Source of the DNA: a virus
Lineage: Duplodnaviria; Heunggongvirae; Uroviricota; Caudoviricetes
Direction: 5' to 3' (one strand)
IMG/VR virus record: IMGVR_UViG_2713896770_000034
DNA length: 23,247 nt
The position numbers and the translations under genes are program-made. Below the pieces are notes generated by a model, which did no database searches, was not told the origin of the DNA, and saw only the letters and a program-made list of their open reading frames with translations. Below, one piece after another: positions 9,505-19,848 of this stretch; position 1 is the first letter of the stretch, and each line of letters begins with the position of its first letter.

Positions 9505-11271
9505 ATGAACACCACACTGACACCCGCAGATCTCGATCCCCGTCGGCAGGCCATGCTGCTGTACTTTCAGGGATACCGCGTAGCCCGCATTGCTGAAATG
9601 CTGGGCGAGAAAGTTGCAACCGTTCACAGCTGGAAAAAACGCGACAAGTGGGGTGACTATGGGCCGCTGGATCAGATGCAGCTCACCACCGCCGCACGCT
9701 ACTGCCAGCTCATCATGAAGGAGCACAAAGAAGGGAAAGATTTCAAAGAGATTGACCTGCTAGCGCGCCAGTCTGAGCGCCACGCGCGGATCGGCAAGTT
9801 TAACAATGGCGGCAACGAAGCCGACTTAAACCCTAACGTCGCCAACCGCAACAAAGGCCCGCGCCGTCAGCCGGAAAAAAATGTCTTCACCGATGAACAG
9901 ATTGAGAAGCTGGAAGAAATCTTCCATTCCTCCATGTTCAACTACCAGCGCCACTGGTGGGAAGCCGGAAAAACCAACCGCATCCGCAACCTGCTGAAGT
10001 CACGCCAGATCGGCGCGACCTTTTACTTTGCCCGTGAAGCCCTGATTGACGCCCTGCTTACCGGGCGTAACCAGATTTTCCTTTCCGCCAGTAAGGCACA
10101 GGCCCACGTCTTTAAGCAGTACATCATCGACTTCGCCAAAGAAGTGGAGGTGGAGCTGAAAGGCGATCCGATGGTGCTTCCTAACGGGGCCACGCTTTAC
10201 TTCCTCGGCACCAATGCCCGCACGGCCCAGAGTTATCACGGCAACCTGTATCTGGATGAATATTTCTGGATACCGAAATTTCAGGAGCTACGCAAAGTGG
10301 CTTCCGGTATGGCTATTCACAAGAAATGGCGGCAGACCTATTTTTCCACACCATCCAGTCTGACCCACAGTGCTTATCCGTTCTGGTCCGGTGCGCTGTT
10401 CAACCGTGGGCGCAACAAAGCTGACAAGGTGGACATCGACCTGTCCCACAGCAATCTGGCCCCCGGCCTGCTGTGCGCAGACGGGCAATACCGCCAGATA
10501 GTCACCGTGGAAGATGCGGTGCGCGGCGGCTGTAACCTGTTCGACCTCGACCAGTTGCGCATGGAGTACAGCCCGGACGAATACCAGAACCTGCTGATGT
10601 GTGAGTTCGTAGACGATCTCGCGTCCGTGTTCCCGCTCAGCGAGCTGCAGGCGTGCATGGTGGACAGCTGGGAAGTCTGGACCGACTTTCATGCACTGGC
10701 CCTGCGCCCGTTTGGCTGGCGCGAGGTGTGGATCGGTTATGACCCGGCAAAAGGTACGCAGAACGGCGACAGTGCCGGATGCGTGGTGGTGGCACCGCCA
10801 GCCGTGCCGGGCGGCAAGTTCCGCATTCTTGAGCGTCACCAGTGGCGCGGGATGGACTTTCGCGCCCAAGCTGACGCCATCAAAAAACTGACCGAACAGT
10901 ACAACGTGACCTATATCGGCATCGACTCAACCGGCGTTGGTCACGGGGTTTATGAGAACGTGAAAGCGTTCTTTCCTGCCGTCCGGGAGTTTGTCTACAA
11001 CCCCAACGTTAAAAACGCCCTGGTACTCAAGGCCTACGACATTATCAGCCACCGCCGTCTGGAGTTTGACGCCGGGCACACCGACATTGCGCAGTCATTC
11101 ATGGCAATCCGTCGCGCCACCACCGCCAGTGGCAACCGCCCGACCTATGAAGCCAGCCGCAGCGAAGAAGCCAGCCACGCCGATCTGGCCTGGGCAACGA
11201 TGCACGCACTGTTTAACGAACCGCTGCAGGGCGAATCCGCCAATACCAGCAATATTGTGGAGATTTTTTGA
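9505..11271 (+). CDS. P: Terminase large (ATPase) subunit P
   Basis: 588-aa ORF (P2 gpP is about 590 aa), divergent from O; stop overlaps Q start (TGATG). Confidence 0.9.
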   Translation: MNTTLTPADLDPRRQAMLLYFQGYRVARIAEMLGEKVATVHSWKKRDKWGDYGPLDQMQLTTAARYCQLIMKEHKEGKDFKEIDLLARQSERHARIGKFNNGGNEADLNPNVANRNKGPRRQPEKNVFTDEQIEKLEEIFHSSMFNYQRHWWEAGKTNRIRNLLKSRQIGATFYFAREALIDALLTGRNQIFLSASKAQAHVFKQYIIDFAKEVEVELKGDPMVLPNGATLYFLGTNARTAQSYHGNLYLDEYFWIPKFQELRKVASGMAIHKKWRQTYFSTPSSLTHSAYPFWSGALFNRGRNKADKVDIDLSHSNLAPGLLCADGQYRQIVTVEDAVRGGCNLFDLDQLRMEYSPDEYQNLLMCEFVDDLASVFPLSELQACMVDSWEVWTDFHALALRPFGWREVWIGYDPAKGTQNGDSAGCVVVAPPAVPGGKFRILERHQWRGMDFRAQADAIKKLTEQYNVTYIGIDSTGVGHGVYENVKAFFPAVREFVYNPNVKNALVLKAYDIISHRRLEFDAGHTDIAQSFMAIRRATTASGNRPTYEASRSEEASHADLAWATMHALFNEPLQGESANTSNIVEIF

Positions 11272-12320
11272 TGGGAAAGAGTAAGAAGAACCGCGCTGCG
11301 GCGACGAACCAGATTCAGCATAAAAGCCAGACTTCAGCCGAAGCATTCAGCTTTGGCGATCCCATTCCAGTACTGGACCGCCGCGAACTGCTGGACTATG
11401 TGGAATGCGTACAGATGGACCGCTGGTATGAGCCGCCCGTCAGCTTTGACGGACTGGCACGAACCTTCCGCGCCGCCGTGCATCACAGCTCACCAATTGC
11501 GGTGAAATGCAACATTCTGACCAGTACCTACATCCCTCACCCGCTGCTCAGCCAGCAGGCTTTTTCACGTTTTGTGCAGGACTATCTGGTATTTGGTAAC
11601 GCCTACCTGGAGAAACGCACGAACCGCTTCGGTGAAGTTATCGCCCTTGAGCCTGCTCTGGCAAAATACACCCGACGCGGGTTAGACCTGGATACCTACT
11701 GGTTTGTGCAATACGGTATGACAACCCAGCCGTATCAGTTCACGAAAGGCAGCATTTTTCATCTGATGGAACCGGATATTAATCAGGAGATCTACGGCCT
11801 GCCCGGCTATCTTTCTGCCATTCCGTCCACCCTGCTCAATGAGTCCGCCACGCTGTTCCGTCGAAAGTATTACATTAACGGCAGTCATGCTGGCTTCATC
11901 ATGTACATGACCGACGCTGCGCAGAACCAGGAGGATGTGAACAACCTCCGCAACGCGATGAAAAGCGCCAAAGGTCCAGGCAACTTCCGCAACCTGTTTA
12001 TGTACTCGCCTAACGGCAAAAAGGACGGGCTTCAGATCATCCCGTTGTCAGAAGTCGCAGCGAAAGATGAATTTCTGAACATCAAGAACGTGAGTCGTGA
12101 TGACATGATGGCCGCGCATCGTGTTCCGCCACAGATGATGGGGATTATGCCGAATAATGTTGGGGGTTTTGGGGATGTGGAAAAAGCGAGCCGTGTCTTC
12201 GTCCGCAATGAACTGATGCCGCTGCAAAAGCGGCTGCAGGAGCTGAATTACTGGCTAGGTAAAGAGGTGATCCGCTTCGAGCCCTACACGCTGGGAATAG
12301 ACACAAACAACGATAGCTAA
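11271..12320 (+). CDS. Q: Portal vertex protein Q
   Basis: Track ORF starts at TTG 11268; ATG at 11271 gives 349 aa (P2 gpQ about 344 aa); follows P in one operon as in P2. Confidence 0.9.
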   Translation: MGKSKKNRAAATNQIQHKSQTSAEAFSFGDPIPVLDRRELLDYVECVQMDRWYEPPVSFDGLARTFRAAVHHSSPIAVKCNILTSTYIPHPLLSQQAFSRFVQDYLVFGNAYLEKRTNRFGEVIALEPALAKYTRRGLDLDTYWFVQYGMTTQPYQFTKGSIFHLMEPDINQEIYGLPGYLSAIPSTLLNESATLFRRKYYINGSHAGFIMYMTDAAQNQEDVNNLRNAMKSAKGPGNFRNLFMYSPNGKKDGLQIIPLSEVAAKDEFLNIKNVSRDDMMAAHRVPPQMMGIMPNNVGGFGDVEKASRVFVRNELMPLQKRLQELNYWLGKEVIRFEPYTLGIDTNNDS

Positions 12321-12324
12321 ATTT

Positions 12325-12361
12325 AAAAGCAGCGCCTCTGCTTGTTAAAGGCGCTGCTAAG
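12325..12361. terminator. Putative bidirectional stem-loop terminator between convergent Q and the 223-aa gene
   Basis: Perfect 9-bp inverted repeat AGCAGCGCC ... GGCGCTGCT about 12328..12358, flanked by A/T runs on both sides. Confidence 0.35.
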
Positions 12362-12371
12362 CCTCAAGAAA

Positions 12372-13043
12372 TTATCGCTCTTCCCCAAGAATTCCGGTCT
12401 TAATCAGCTGATTCCAGAAGTTTTTCATTTTCTGTCCTGTCTGCTGATTAACAAATAGAGATGATCTGGCACCGTGCGGATATCCCATCAACTGCCCGCG
12501 CATATCTTCCCAATTTTCACAATAAACTGCATGCCGCCAGTTAGGAACCTCGCTTTCAAGCATCAATCCAATTGCTGCTTTTGCTGGAATGGTGCCATCC
12601 TCTTCCATATCTTCCGAAATAAGCCAATGGCATTTTATTAACAACGGGACGGCGTTGTCATTATAAAGCACAACGTCATCAATCTTCTCAATAGAGAAAT
12701 GGGCATCCGTGTGCTTTAGACGTTTTATACCAGCTATAAATTCATCAACCCTATGACCATAAGGACAGGTAAGAATGCCGTTCCTGAAATAGACCGTGTG
12801 GTCCAGGTATTTAAAGCTAGGAGTATTATTGGGAGTCATAGGCGCCCAAATAGCTTTATCTCTTTCCAGCAAAAAAGGATGCCATGCTGGATACCCATCC
12901 ACTACTGGCCCACATTCTTCAACAATTTCTTTGAGCTTCGCCCTAACTTTCGAACGCATCTCCTGATTTGAACCTTGTGGAACTAGATATCTGTAAGCAT
13001 TTTCGAAATTCGATGCTGCTGCTTCTTCCGCTCTGAAAGCCAT
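12372..13043 (-). CDS. Hypothetical 223-aa accessory protein, no recognisable family
   Basis: ATG at 13043 preceded by GGGGTG; plausible sigma70 promoter (TTGATA-18 bp-TATATT) upstream; G+C visibly below the phage backbone; lies between portal Q and cos where P2 has no gene. Confidence 0.65.
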   Translation of the reverse strand: MAFRAEEAAASNFENAYRYLVPQGSNQEMRSKVRAKLKEIVEECGPVVDGYPAWHPFLLERDKAIWAPMTPNNTPSFKYLDHTVYFRNGILTCPYGHRVDEFIAGIKRLKHTDAHFSIEKIDDVVLYNDNAVPLLIKCHWLISEDMEEDGTIPAKAAIGLMLESEVPNWRHAVYCENWEDMRGQLMGYPHGARSSLFVNQQTGQKMKNFWNQLIKTGILGEER

Positions 13044-13263
13044 AAAACACCCCGCAATATAGATACATTACGCACAACGTATCAATTTCATGCACAAGTT
13101 GCAATGTTTGTGTTTTACCGCTTAAGCCAATTCCCTCAATAAACAACCTCAACAACTTCCTGTGGGGCGGTTTTTTTGCTGCTGCACCTCACCATTTCAA
13201 TTTGAAGCCGCTAGCGGGCCGTAGGCTGTGCCGAGTTTTTGCTATTTCACCTCGTTGCGCGCG

Positions 13264-13282
13264 CTCGTATCCCCGCCACGCC
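13264..13282 (-). other. cos site (P2/186-type cohesive end)
   Basis: Minus strand reads GGCGTGGCGGGG followed by ATACGAG; the first 12 nt match the 186 cos cohesive end as I recall it (GGCGTGGCGGGGAAAGCAT; P2 GGCGAGGCGGGGAAAGCAC). Located between Q and the replication side, as in P2. Confidence 0.55.
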
Positions 13283-13561
13283 TGCCCGCTTTATGTAGTG
13301 GTTTTCATGCACCTGCATGTTCTACGTAAAAGCCCGCTAGTTCTGGCGAGCCTTAGCAAAAACGATCCTTAAACGATCATGCGATTTCATGCAGCATAGT
13401 CATGCACTGTCTAAGAGAAGTGAAAGTCCGTATCTGAATGACCACTTGAAAAACGAAACATACAGACTTACAAAGATGAAGCTCTACTGTGAGCGAGGAA
13501 CATACATAGTTGCTCTGTAATAGCCAAATTTTAAGCAGGAAATCTCTTTTTTATGACAAAA

Positions 13562-13604: not shown

Positions 13605-15182
13605 CTACAATACTTTTCTCTCGATGGTATTTTTAATGGTCAACATATCTTTAGGAATACTTTTTTTCCCCTCTATACGTATGGTAAACACAAAAAGAAT
13701 AACGGCTGATCTCACAATTTTCATGAGTTGTAAGAGCTGTTTCTCAAACTTTTCTTTCTCAATAAATCTCACCTCATCAAAAAATCCATAAGAATTATAT
13801 AAATCAACTAACATGTCTTTCTCGTGAATAACTAACAGTTTATGTTCTAAATCATTCCTCCATTCTTTAAAAAAAGCAAGCTCACCATTTTTATCATTCA
13901 AATCCATAGCAATACTAAACAAACCCAGCAATCCTTTATTATTTATTTTGTTTATTTTAAGCTTTCTTTTTTCATCACTAATCCGCCAGAAGTTATGAAA
14001 GTATATATGTCCTCTATCTGGTTTTAAATCAAATAATTGACACAGAGCAACTGCTATTTTATCCAAGATACCAAAGCAAGCTCTAAATGCAACCCTTAAC
14101 TTCTCAACATTTTCATACAATATTTCTCCATTATACAATTCAGAATAACATACCTCCGAATCCTCATCAAAAAACTCACTATCAACCTTATATTCAAAAA
14201 ACATTTTTCGTGCTAAGGAATACTCAGCTTTAAGTCTATTTAACACCATTTCCATTGGCACTATAAAATCACCAAACACACCTTCCTCGGTGGTAGCAAT
14301 AGTTATATTATCTTTAGATGACGCATAACAATTGCAATATAGCGAATGATCAGACAACATTAGATTATTATCTATACAAAACCTCTGGTAGTTTGATAAA
14401 GTATCATACTCCTCCTGCGTGAGCCTTTCATCTGTACTTATATCCTCTATGCCATATACACATGATTCACTCAATATACTTTCGTTGTACTTTATTTTTC
14501 TTTGAAGAGCAACCTTCCATGAAGGAAAACATTTCCCTGACTTTATTGCACACTCATAACCTCGAATAACTTCTTTAATCATTTTATATGTATATGTTGT
14601 AGATAATTCATTAAGCAATTCTAATGCCTCAGATCTGTTTACCCACGCCTGAGGAATTGAGTTATCAATAGATATTGCTTGTTCATAATAATCCATTGAT
14701 TCAGATATACGATATTGTTTTTTTAATACATTAGCTAGATTAACTATTAAATCAGGGGGCACCCATCCATCTTCTTGTGAAAGTTTAAACGCTTTCCAGT
14801 AATTATTTTTTACATCATTCAGCTTAATGAAACTATCAATATCTGCATTGTCATTAGGATTAAAATCAAGAACTGCGCTCATTCCATTTGCCAAGTTATA
14901 GTAATATAAGGATTCTTTCATTATAGTCAGAAATTCATTTTTATTGTTTATAAAGATATTTAAGCCTTCCTCCGCTATATTTTTTACATTACTAAAACTT
15001 CCGATATCAATAAGATTTCCGGCCAAATTAGATAATATAATTATTCTATTTTCTTTGATTGTATTTATCTCATCGATACCGTTAAGAATATCCTTTACAT
15101 TTTTATAGGCAGAATCAAATGAACCTGCATTAATAAGATCATCTACGAACCCCATTTTTGAAACAACATAGTTGATATCCAT
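13605..15182 (-). CDS. 525-aa AT-rich accessory protein; N-terminal TPR-like helical repeats, C-terminal HEPN-like region with one R-N-x-x-x-H motif; candidate abortive-infection/defence effector
   Basis: ATG at 15182 with AGAGGA Shine-Dalgarno; 1578-nt frame open in very AT-rich DNA; RNDLEH at residues 442-447 (nt about 13842..13859); no Walker A and no reverse-transcriptase YxDD motif seen. Occupies the P2 old/tin position next to cos. Confidence 0.8.
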   Translation of the reverse strand: MDINYVVSKMGFVDDLINAGSFDSAYKNVKDILNGIDEINTIKENRIIILSNLAGNLIDIGSFSNVKNIAEEGLNIFINNKNEFLTIMKESLYYYNLANGMSAVLDFNPNDNADIDSFIKLNDVKNNYWKAFKLSQEDGWVPPDLIVNLANVLKKQYRISESMDYYEQAISIDNSIPQAWVNRSEALELLNELSTTYTYKMIKEVIRGYECAIKSGKCFPSWKVALQRKIKYNESILSESCVYGIEDISTDERLTQEEYDTLSNYQRFCIDNNLMLSDHSLYCNCYASSKDNITIATTEEGVFGDFIVPMEMVLNRLKAEYSLARKMFFEYKVDSEFFDEDSEVCYSELYNGEILYENVEKLRVAFRACFGILDKIAVALCQLFDLKPDRGHIYFHNFWRISDEKRKLKINKINNKGLLGLFSIAMDLNDKNGELAFFKEWRNDLEHKLLVIHEKDMLVDLYNSYGFFDEVRFIEKEKFEKQLLQLMKIVRSAVILFVFTIRIEGKKSIPKDMLTIKNTIERKVL

Positions 15183-19548: not shown

Positions 19549-19781
19549 TAGTGGATCTCCTGCGCTTCGCTCTGGATTGCTTCAGCGGTCACACGCAGCA
19601 GTTCTGCTGCTTCGACGTGGTTTAGCTGGCGGGATGTGATATGACACGCCAGGCTATCAAGGCGAGCTGCCATTGCTTCAGCCCTTGCCCGGCGTTCTTC
19701 CAGACGAGCCTCTGTCAGTAAAATATTAAGCCCTGCGTCATCCGGTCCAGTTTTAGTCGTGAGGGTTTCAATATTACGCAT
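19548..19781 (-). CDS. Hypothetical early protein (possibly DUF2732-like)
   Basis: Track ORF starts at TTG 19787; ATG at 19781 with AGGAG Shine-Dalgarno, 77 aa; family assignment from memory only. Confidence 0.55.
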   Translation of the reverse strand: MRNIETLTTKTGPDDAGLNILLTEARLEERRARAEAMAARLDSLACHITSRQLNHVEAAELLRVTAEAIQSEAQEIH

Positions 19782-19848
19782 AATCAATTCTCCTGAATTT
19801 AGATAAAGGGATGCCCGGCGGGTTTACGCCATTAATTTCATTAGTTGG

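Follow-up and report, generated by a model that had tools for sequence, protein, structure and literature searches.

A single-gene accessory cassette with a phased palindrome array in the portal-cos interval of a P2/186-like prophage

An 836-bp cassette between the portal gene and cos

The window analyzed here is a 23,247-nucleotide stretch of viral DNA (Caudoviricetes; IMG/VR record IMGVR_UViG_2713896770_000034) that corresponds to a P2/186-like prophage. At positions 12372..13043 on the minus strand it contains an ORF with an ATG start that encodes a 223-aa protein, here called X, and its coordinates and position between the portal gene and cos are exactly as given in an earlier note on this DNA. 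Portal gene Q (11268..12320, plus strand; Pfam Phage_portal) is convergent with X. On the other side of X lies the cohesive-end site, 13264..13282, with GGCGTGGCGGGGATACGAG on the minus strand, which we take to be cos from its consensus. This placement is supported by phage Cartapus, whose annotated cos shares 98% identity with the segment 13257-13314.

Comparison with Yersinia phage MLG42, in which the slot is empty, delimits an inserted cassette of 836 bp (12311..13146) that leaves cos outside. Homology to MLG42 ends at 12310 and restarts at 13147, and only ~51 bp lie between those points in MLG42, so that the insertion separates elements adjacent in a related phage. The cassette has space for one gene only. 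G+C is 0.42-0.43 across the X gene versus 0.52-0.62 in the structural genes, in agreement with the low value previously remarked on. Together with its own candidate promoter hexamers and a hairpin followed by a T tail, both read from the sequence, these features give the cassette all the defining anatomy of the morons of temperate phages (insertion, own promoter, terminator, and deviant G+C). X is the sole gene of a self-contained accessory cassette, a moron, between the portal gene and cos. The unit differs from other morons in that it also rides conjugative plasmids and ICEs and comes with its own operator array of several sites, a feature not known from classic morons.

The intrinsic-terminator-like hairpin lies between the stop codons of X and Q (12328..12358, minus strand), within the inserted segment. 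It has a 12-bp stem with 7 G-C pairs, a T-rich tail, and a folding energy of -20 kcal/mol, and it is kept in the closest relatives. The earlier note had described this palindrome as a terminator shared with the convergent Q gene. The hairpin itself is present, but its T-rich tail occurs only on the X (minus) strand, which makes it the terminator of X rather than one truly shared with Q.

For the proposed sigma70 promoter, a consensus scan performed at chance level, with 3 sites found versus 2.9 expected, and the scan site near X, TTGATA-18-TATATT (13085..13056), was set aside because it would leave almost no leader and its -10 is unconserved in Enterobacter cassettes. Support comes instead from a cassette alignment, which gives a candidate -35 hexamer, TTGCAA (13099..13104, minus strand), and a candidate -10 hexamer, TACGTT (13076..13081, minus strand), with a conserved TAnnnT position. 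Across seven P2-like cassettes, with identity to X from 100% to 62%, TTGCAA or TTGATN occupies the same alignment column, the spacing from -35 to TAnnnT is always 17 nt, and the -10 variants at the conserved position are TACGTT, TAAATT, TATTTT, TATTCT, and TATGTT. Transcription of X is predicted to start near 13069. The Shine-Dalgarno-like element noted earlier is GGGGTG at 13048..13053 (minus strand); a conserved GAGGT stands 5-8 nt upstream of the ATG in the aligned related cassettes.

The cos-flanking (gpA-gpQ) region is a published P2 anti-phage/defense hotspot (Rousset et al. 2022, PMC9122126). X lies within it, between gpA and gpQ beside cos, where contents vary among related prophages: in P2-like phages the slot is alternatively empty or filled by DUF4145 or Hypoth_Ymh. 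The earlier suggestion of an independent accessory function is borne out to the extent that X is a horizontally acquired moron with its own signals in this hotspot. Known hotspot cargo, such as old and tin of P2 (PMC9122126), shares with X the locus, variable slot content, low G+C, and own expression signals. X differs from such cargo in lying on the portal side of cos, in its long linkage to the structural arm where gpA-side cargo is swapped, and in having no homology to any cataloged defense protein. A moron-type element in the P2 cos hotspot slot is already known; the X protein family and its regulatory array are described in no library searched.

The X protein family and its carriers

X of the window is WP_048231591.1, and near-identical copies stand in RefSeq as WP_000885505.1, a "hypothetical protein". 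The start codon is backed by a family-wide conserved N-terminus, MAFRA(D/E)E, and Ka/Ks values are 0.04-0.15. X is a genuine protein-coding gene under purifying selection and belongs to an uncharacterized alpha/beta family. Its homologues fall into 203 clusters when grouped at 90% identity, and grouping at 50% leaves 293 representatives; almost all are ~220 aa long. The AlphaFold model is confident (pLDDT 92.4) and shows one compact domain. It begins with coil at residues 1-4 and helices at 5-20 and 27-44, has no N-terminal strand, and packs both helices within the single 223-aa domain. The first 45 aa are acidic, with a median pI of 4.9 across the family.

The earlier note had recognized no family and had proposed profile and structure-based searches, which bear out that reading. 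Neither X, nor 58 family members, nor the N-terminal 50 aa alone matched Pfam, NCBIfam, PHROG, or PADLOC, and the same queries matched no HTH or RHH family. In PADLOC-DB 2.0, no defense family matched X at E<=1. Sequence and profile searches of solved structures (PDB) returned nothing meaningful, and Foldseek comparison of the model with PDB and BFVD gave no match at E<=0.001. X has no recognizable effector motif and no nuclease motif or fold match. Relatives of 310-325 aa carry C-terminal extensions that are likewise without a Pfam match, and an outward search from a divergent plasmid subfamily reached no annotated relatives. The X family is therefore without a detectable relative or fold match in the libraries searched. 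In the literature, WP_000885505 is absent from the papers' main texts and from the DefensePredictor supplementary files. It is entered only as "hypothetical" in the Table S5 hotspot listing of PMC9122126, a paper that gives no indication that X was among the systems cloned and tested.

The scattered Cys and His residues of X had been thought capable of binding metal, an idea that family-wide alignment does not sustain. Of the four candidate ligands, H55 is the only invariant polar residue in the family. H82 and C93 (CPY motif) are kept in most members and replaced in divergent subfamilies, and C138 (KCHW) is missing from whole subfamilies, including the entire plasmid subfamily. The YCENW cysteine is also unconserved across the family. 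A zinc site formed by H55, H82, C93, and C138 was accordingly dropped as a family feature once the wider alignment showed ligands replaced. Conserved residues are mostly Trp, Pro, and Gly, plus H55, D81, E176, and S195.

The family is rare yet widespread and occurs as a stand-alone gene on varied mobile elements across several phyla. Members were found in 24 of 5,426 complete E. coli genomes, in 160 of 185,579 species genomes, and on 200 plasmids, of which 158 are conjugative. They also occur in ICEs, in genomic islands, some of which have no phage genes, and in P2-, HK97-, and Mu-like prophages; no homologue was found among 50,697 isolated phage records. The IncFII plasmids inspected hold X just after repA/oriV or beside parA, away from leading-region genes, and the neighbors of X in ICEs include ParB_N, DUF932, and DUF736. 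In several differently deleted P2 remnants of Serratia, X is intact while portal, terminase, and gpA genes are truncated or lost.

Within P2-like phages, X identity tracks the identity of portal Q and of the large terminase (P), with a Spearman coefficient of 0.87 between X and portal divergence. This co-divergence points to vertical inheritance rather than repeated invasion. In Enterobacter, an identical X-plus-portal arm is combined with six different cargo sets across cos, and in E. coli the gene across cos from X is a KAP-like NTPase or TPR-HEPN. The two arms of the P2 hotspot thus evolve differently, with portal-side cargo inherited with the structural genes and gpA-side cargo swapped. 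The long-term linkage of X to the portal arm had escaped the earlier note. A two-gene system of X with the TPR-HEPN or KAP NTPase gene was considered and dropped, because the partner across cos changes while X stays. A conserved partner gene or operon was dropped as well: the best co-occurring gene cluster appears in 8 of 80 loci, and no neighbor is conserved. X likewise has no conserved adjacent partner gene or partner toxin of the kind that defines a type II toxin-antitoxin system.

Its association with structural genes might suggest that X is a morphogenesis or packaging accessory factor acting with portal, terminase, or cos, as it adjoins portal, terminase, or head genes in P2-, HK97-, and Mu-like prophages and co-diverges with Q and P. 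This explanation is already close to refuted. Most P2-like phages do not have X, among them isolates whose slot is empty or occupied by something else, and X occurs on plasmids, ICEs, and islands without phage genes. In other prophages it lies close to integrase and repressor genes. The earlier note had named homology to a virion or packaging component as a finding that would count against an accessory role, and no such homology is seen in PHROG or Pfam. X is not a virion or packaging component. The generalization that X always lies beside packaging genes was dropped, as other prophages carry it near integrase, repressor, and SRAP genes.

We also considered a selfish element, that is, a free-standing homing-type nuclease or addiction gene kept by its own drive and not by carrier benefit. 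X is intergenic between conserved genes in three phage types (portal/cos, lysis/terminase, and G/scaffold), and it is a single gene with its own signals, a patchy distribution, and a G+C below that of its flanks in 49 of 77 loci. We regard this explanation as very improbable, given the lack of a nuclease motif or fold match in X, the vertical inheritance indicated by co-divergence with portal, and the presence of X in plasmid and chromosomal-island contexts without a conserved target gene.

A phased palindrome array at the X promoter

Upstream of X homologues across phyla, a 10-bp palindrome, TYRYGCRYRA, recurs in 2-4 copies at exactly 20-bp spacing. In the window, X-box A, TTGTGCGTAA (minus strand; 13068..13077), matches this motif exactly and overlaps the -10 box and the predicted transcription start. 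X-box B, TTGTGCATGA (minus strand; 13088..13097), also matches exactly and lies within the 17-nt spacer, at a distance of exactly 20 bp from X-box A. X-box C (13108..13117), read from the sequence as TAAAACACAA, is another 20 bp upstream and falls just 5' of the -35 box; it is a degenerate site that agrees with the motif at 7 of 10 positions and corresponds to site 1 of the three-site consensus array. The X-boxes therefore interleave with the -35 and -10 boxes. The window has 5 exact sites versus 2.8 expected, and only the two at the X promoter are phased. This array was not among the features described in the earlier note.

The density of exact sites is 9.4 per kb in the region upstream of X and 0.091 per kb in 1.77 Mb of flanking sequence, a ~100-fold enrichment. 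At least two sites are present in 106 of 124 distinct regions upstream of X, and 120 of ~150 adjacent site pairs are spaced by exactly 20 bp. All 95 spaced pairs fall within 250 bp of X, with none elsewhere in the flanking sequence examined. The array is found with X in alpha-, beta-, and gamma-proteobacteria, in Verrucomicrobia, and in Bacteroidota, on elements that are unrelated to one another. In IMG/VR, 7 of 12 matches to the two-site pattern lie directly upstream of an X homologue, with ~9 matches expected by chance (estimated at ~6e-11 per position per strand over ~8e10 bases). A strict three-site scan of IMG/VR gave no match, the pattern being too narrow.

An array placed around the promoter implies tight negative regulation and not simple constitutive expression. 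Negative autoregulation by X itself is the most economical reading. X most likely binds the sites, as we infer from co-occurrence alone, because the cassette carries nothing else and the hosts share no other plausible factor. An X dimer would contact the palindromes from one face of the DNA helix and repress its own promoter, and the near-invariant MAFRA(D/E)E segment, particularly R4, may help read the invariant central GC. An association between the N-terminal motif and operator presence gives a Fisher p of 0.04, with only 3 members lacking the motif and too few divergent members to convince. Two features of X speak against self-repression, namely, that it has no detectable DNA-binding domain and that its acidic N-terminus lies within a compact domain.

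A different possibility is that the palindromes are bound by another agent, for example a conserved factor of the host, or that they work in the RNA. X would then be a non-DNA-binding accessory protein that affects host physiology, in an ordinary case of lysogenic conversion. Such a role would fit a single compact acidic domain with no recognizable DNA-binding domain, and the conserved Trp, Pro, and Gly residues plus H55, D81, E176, and S195 are compatible with a small enzyme or ligand binder. We consider this improbable, as the array travels with X across phyla and unrelated elements and is absent from the 1.77 Mb of flanking DNA, and no global regulator is known to recognize TYRYGCRYRA. The sites also straddle the -35 and -10 hexamers, which suggests action on DNA rather than in the 5' UTR.

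Like the operators of RHH repressors and antitoxins (Arc, CopG, MetJ, and ParD-type), the array consists of short palindromic subsites that recur in phase and overlap the promoter. The N-terminal segment of X with its first two helices is approximately the size of an RHH module and contains an invariant Arg at position 4. In contrast to these proteins, X has no RHH family match, no N-terminal strand in the monomer model, helices that belong to a single 223-aa domain, and no partner toxin gene. We treat the resemblance as a lead only.

Candidate roles of X

The best overall explanation, which we hold tentatively, is that X is a self-repressing moron whose second activity is most likely exclusion or defense expressed in the lysogen. 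Following DNA entry into a naive cell, a burst of X would give way to low, constant amounts in the lysogen. A second, dose-sensitive activity, directed against other mobile elements, would reside in the body of the protein; autorepression would keep it low, and it might be triggered, or simply be present, when a competitor infects. Intact X in decayed remnants, the absence of isolated-phage homologues, the alternative occupants of the slot, the hotspot location, and defense-type neighbors suggest that X benefits the lysogen or host and not the virion. Elsewhere, the neighbors of X include Abi, RM, pAgo, toxin-antitoxin, and pyocin genes.

Several observations run against a defense reading. X has no PADLOC match, and defense-model matches account for only ~7% of its nearest neighbors in 79 genomes, a weak defense-island signal. 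Its co-divergence with portal is unlike the fast turnover of typical hotspot defense cargo. A burst followed by shut-off is the logic of establishment and anti-defense genes, which would also fit the Mu-like G-to-scaffold slot and the ICE neighbors ParB_N, DUF932, and DUF736.

These points lead to the main alternative, in which X is an anti-defense or establishment factor with built-in autorepression, similar to AcrIIA1. A burst of X on entry would neutralize a broadly conserved host barrier and then shut itself off. The operator-in-promoter layout resembles that of acr-aca operons and of bifunctional AcrIIA1 (PMC9410906), which are, like X, small accessory genes of mobile elements with a sigma-70 promoter overlapped by inverted repeats. 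As expected of an Acr-Aca fusion, the inverted repeats overlap the promoter of X itself, and X would by analogy merge repressor and effector in one protein. A Roseibium Mu-like prophage has X precisely in the interval from the Mu G homologue to the protease/scaffold gene, the slot that serves as the anti-CRISPR locus of Pseudomonas Mu-like phages (PMC3993853). X also occurs on every kind of incoming element (prophages, conjugative plasmids, and ICEs), and its stable vertical linkage to the structural arm suggests value to the phage itself.

Despite these parallels, we judge an anti-defense role unlikely and favor lysogen-expressed exclusion or defense over it, still tentatively. No isolated phage, virulent or temperate, has a homologue; decayed prophage remnants keep X intact although a function exerted during infection would be of no use there; and on the inspected IncFII plasmids the gene lies near repA/oriV or parA and not with leading-region genes. 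To work in so wide a range of hosts, X would need a target that is almost universal. X differs from AcrIIA1 and acr-aca proteins in having no HTH domain and no sequence or fold similarity to them, and its operators are 10-bp palindromes, as many as four, in strict 20-bp phase. No single CRISPR type comes near the host range of X, and what would point to an inhibitor of a defense system is positional, namely, the Mu-like G-to-scaffold slot.

If X binds the array, it would represent a new DNA-binding fold, in an expression unit that is portable and limits itself. With anti-phage or anti-defense activity in addition, it would add a family that homology- and island-based discovery pipelines have overlooked, because it has no conserved neighbors and only a weak defense-island signal. 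X could, in a broader proposal that we regard as rather doubtful, be the founder of a class of one-gene self-regulating conflict modules. Such a protein, with a new fold, would read a TTATGCGTAA-like palindrome at 20-bp phasing, throttle its own promoter, and exert a new immune or counter-immune activity, with the whole unit moving as a block between phages, plasmids, and ICEs across phyla. The 836-bp cassette is small, and binding of three phased palindromes by their own product is a precise hypothesis. The cassette is found in the well-studied strains NC101, ML35, and NGF1.

The X cassette and its position beside cos

The window is made up of a P2/186-like prophage with tail, lysis, and capsid genes, scaffold O, terminase P (9505-11271, plus strand), portal Q (11268-12320, plus strand), replication gene A, dam, CII/Fil-type early genes, and an integrase. 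Between portal Q and cos, an orphan ORF with an ATG start (12372..13043, minus strand) encodes a 223-aa protein, here called X, matching the earlier note exactly in coordinates and length. The exact sequence is WP_048231591.1, and near-identical RefSeq copies (WP_000885505.1) are annotated "hypothetical protein". The X start codon lies ~220 bp downstream of cos (GGCGTGGCGGGGATACGAG, 13282-13264, minus strand), in a stretch that matches the annotated Cartapus phage cos at 98% identity. As had been noticed from the sequence, the G+C content of the X gene (0.42-0.43) is below that of the structural genes (0.52-0.62). A terminator-like hairpin with a 12-bp stem (-20 kcal/mol) is present at 12328-12358, 3' of the X stop codon and in the X direction. 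It had been described as a terminator shared with convergent Q, but its T-rich tail occurs on the X strand alone.

Homology to Yersinia phage MLG42, a relative with an empty slot at the X position, ends at 12310 and restarts at 13147, with ~51 bp between. This break indicates an 836-bp insertion (12311-13146), the cassette, which contains the terminator, the X gene, and 103 bp of upstream DNA. Two Peduoviridae carry a different gene in the same slot and orientation, encoding a DUF4145 protein in Cartapus and a Hypoth_Ymh protein in vB_EcoM-813R9. This locus has been published as the gpA-gpQ hotspot that flanks cos in P2-like phages (PMC9122126), and the hotspot-content table of that study lists WP_000885505 as "hypothetical" beside a KAP NTPase. 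We found no sign in PMC9122126 or the DefensePredictor supplementary files that WP_000885505 had been tested. By its anatomy, the X cassette is a moron in this known hotspot, with the features of membership, and it is an autonomous unit.

A new protein family

X homologues fall into 203 clusters at a 90% identity level and 293 representatives at 50%, none of which has a name or domain, and nearly all are ~220 aa. Searches of Pfam, NCBIfam, PHROGs, and PADLOC with X, 58 relatives, and longer variants gave no match, nor did PDB sequence searches with X, in agreement with the earlier impression that X has no recognised family. Ka/Ks between P2-like copies is 0.04-0.15. A confident AlphaFold model based on 58 sequences (pLDDT 92.4, pTM 0.89) is a single alpha/beta domain with two long helices at its N-terminal start. 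X is a real protein of a new family, outside every catalogued defence, anti-defence, HTH, toxin-antitoxin, and structural family checked. That it is a selfish nuclease or addiction gene appears quite improbable. We consider a packaging accessory role highly improbable; PHROGs and Pfam yielded no homology to a virion or packaging component.

The scattered Cys and His residues had suggested a possible metal site. Residues H55, H82, C93, and C138 are invariant in the closer half of the family, but C138 is missing throughout the plasmid subfamily and C93 and H82 are missing in several divergent members, so a metal site does not characterise the family. Invariance across the wider alignment is confined to G45, P52, W54, H55, P56, W178, G187, and P189, while D81, E176, and S195 reach ≥90%.

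A phased palindrome array at the X promoter

Alignment of the regions upstream of P2-like X cassettes revealed a conserved -35 element (TTGCAA/TTGATN), a 17-nt spacer, a -10 element (TAnnnT), and a GAGGT-type Shine-Dalgarno sequence. The corresponding candidates in the window lie on the minus strand at 13104-13099 (-35), 13081-13076 (-10), and ~13053-13048 (Shine-Dalgarno). These conserved elements uphold the proposal that X has its own promoter and Shine-Dalgarno sequence; the promoter picked by a consensus scan (13085..13056) is not conserved and would leave almost no leader.

A 10-bp palindrome, TYRYGCRYRA (the X-box; consensus near TTATGCGTAA), surrounds these hexamers and occurs upstream of X homologues down to ~35% identity, in all kinds of element and host. 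Exact sites are found at 9.4/kb in the 130 nt upstream of X versus 0.091/kb in 1.77 Mb of flanks. At least two exact sites are present in 106 of 124 distinct upstream regions, and the start-to-start spacing is exactly 20 bp in 120 of ~150 pairs of adjacent sites. All distinct 20-bp-spaced pairs (95/95) lie within 250 bp of an X gene, with none further away in the flanking sequence scanned. A scan of all of IMG/VR with the two-site pattern gave 12 matches (~9 expected by chance by our estimate), 7 of them directly upstream of an X homologue; four of the others are in 240-354-kb contigs or giant-virus MAGs and one is in a 39-kb contig. In the flanking sequence covered, the array is exclusive to the X gene, and is operator-like and dedicated.

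The typical order at X promoters is site, -35, site, -10, site; with all sites occupied, RNA polymerase should be excluded. In the window (minus strand), X-box C (13117-13108) is degenerate, whereas X-box B (13097-13088), within the -35/-10 spacer, and X-box A (13077-13068), which overlaps the -10 element and predicted start, are exact. The five exact X-boxes in the window are not above chance (2.8 expected). A single, unphased, perfect consensus X-box (TTACGCATAA, 19774-19783) lies over the start codon of a DUF2732 early gene. Separately, three copies of the 9-mer TGCATGAAA (minus strand) cluster in 300 bp around cos (13086-13094, 13303-13311, and 13385-13393), and just one more is present elsewhere in the window. 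One cos-proximal copy belongs to X-box B; the other two are in cos-flanking backbone conserved in P2-like phages without X. This repeat may have arisen by chance, may serve packaging or bind a host factor, or may anchor the recombination that exchanges cassettes.

Because the cassette encodes only X and its carriers share no other plausible factor, X is the most economical candidate, and these comparisons suggest that it probably binds its own palindrome array. The N-terminal sequence MAFRA(D/E)E, nearly invariant in the protein while its codons vary, fits this assignment. Short phased palindromes are the kind of operator read by ribbon-helix-helix repressors, which also fits. X has no Pfam match to that family. 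It matches no DNA-binding family, even when its N-terminal 50 aa are searched alone, and its N-terminal segment is acidic and packed into one compact domain in the AlphaFold model. These features count against X as the array binder; that X is an accessory protein that does not bind DNA and is controlled by a foreign regulator seems unlikely.

Binding of X to the array would produce negative autoregulation, with a burst of X upon entry into a naive cell and then a low steady level. Such a protein would behave most like a single-gene conflict module that regulates itself; its closest functional analogue would be AcrIIA1, to which X has no homology. The burst-then-repress design is common to acr-aca operons and the AcrIIA1 fusion (PMC9410906) and speaks for an anti-defence or establishment role of X, a reading we hold only tentatively and consider rather doubtful. 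The X family, its fold, and its operator array are so far undescribed, and the central hypothesis of array binding by X is directly testable.

Distribution, neighbours, and candidate roles

X homologues are rare and patchy, occurring in 24 of 5,426 complete E. coli genomes, 160 of 185,579 species-representative genomes (alpha-, beta-, and gamma-proteobacteria, Verrucomicrobia, and others), 200 of 72,556 plasmids (158 conjugative), 47 IMG/VR contigs, and 0 of 50,697 isolated phage records. A copy identical to E. coli X on a 4.5-kb contig of a "Bacillota" MAG (locus L002) and a 42%-identical copy in a "Methanomassiliicoccaceae archaeon" MAG (L059) probably reflect binning contamination rather than true hosts. 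The 59-kb viral contig IMGVR_UViG_2565956658_000001 has a homologue near each end (L133, L134), which could be a terminal duplication or assembly concatemer. The G+C content of the X gene is below that of its flanks at 49 of 77 loci, and X has no conserved neighbour, the best co-occurring gene cluster being found at 8 of 80 loci.

The portal gene adjoins X in 18 P2-like viral contigs. In an HK97-like Klebsiella prophage, X separates the lysis cassette from HNH-TerS-TerL; other prophages have it near integrase, repressor, or SRAP genes or where lysis and terminase genes meet. In the IncF plasmids inspected, which also carry RM genes, X lies directly past repA/oriV or adjoins parA. On an Aeromonas phage-plasmid, X adjoins an Abi gene; on a P. 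syringae plasmid, its neighbour is a RelE-type toxin-antitoxin pair, and in Marinobacter it is a pyocin S-immunity pair. PADLOC models match ~7% of 149 nearest neighbours at 79 sampled genome loci (methyltransferases, pAgo, PbeA, and mad2), a weak defence-island signal. The autonomous cassette supports the accessory character proposed earlier, while the specific roles named with it stand as readings. A lysogen-expressed exclusion or defence role is a reasonable possibility, if short of probable; the hotspot location, the nature of the alternative slot occupants, the absence of X from all isolated phage records, and the Abi, RM, pAgo, toxin-antitoxin, and pyocin neighbours count for it.

An anti-defence role would agree with the carriage of X by every type of incoming element and with its ICE neighbours, DUF736 on one side of X and a ParB_N protein plus DUF932 on the other, in an element common to eight beta- and gamma-proteobacterial genera. 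It would also agree with a Roseibium Mu-like prophage in which X lies between a Mu G homologue and the protease/scaffold gene, the slot used for anti-CRISPR genes by Pseudomonas Mu-like phages (PMC3993853). The IncF copies, outside the leading-region genes, argue against it. This single ICE-like region consists of DUF736, X, a 680-760-aa ParB_N protein, and DUF932 (L013, L014, L019, L022, L027, L028, L036, and L037; Stenotrophomonas, Achromobacter, Paucibacter, Vogesella, Castellaniella, Xenophilus, Acidovorax, and Delftia). Gene coordinates coincide exactly between the loci of Stenotrophomonas and Achromobacter, down to an IS110-family gene missing at that position in the other six genera.

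Within P2-like phages, X identity (100% down to 41% over 20 distinct loci) tracks that of the portal (Spearman 0.87) and large terminase (0.90), which makes X a long-term resident of the structural arm rather than rapidly swapped cargo; this stable linkage is a further point for anti-defence. Six Enterobacter prophages (L085-L090) share one identical arm of X, portal, and terminase, joined to gpA of ~35% or ~83% identity to that of the window. Their cargo between DinI and cos is wholly different, with six sets that include GAPS4, GmrSD with HEPN, and Dcm plus an unknown gene, indicating that recombination at or near cos reshuffles the arms. On the far side of cos, X is partnered by a KAP-like P-loop NTPase in the complete E. 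coli genomes inspected and, in the window, by a 525-aa protein with TPR repeats and a C-terminal HEPN_LA2681 domain (13605-15182, minus strand; Pfam E=1.8e-38; G+C ~0.30), likely anti-phage cargo of the gpA-side hotspot arm.

Several P2 remnants in Serratia, each with its own deletions, retain one identical, intact X (63% identity to the query) despite truncation or loss of the portal, terminase, and gpA genes, and such survival in decayed prophages counts for an exclusion or defence role. The S. marcescens remnants (L101-L105) adjoin ybjM and grxA and keep an Eco57I-type gene, an HTH gene, HicB, and X, with the extent of truncation differing by strain; this region looks like a domesticated remnant island.
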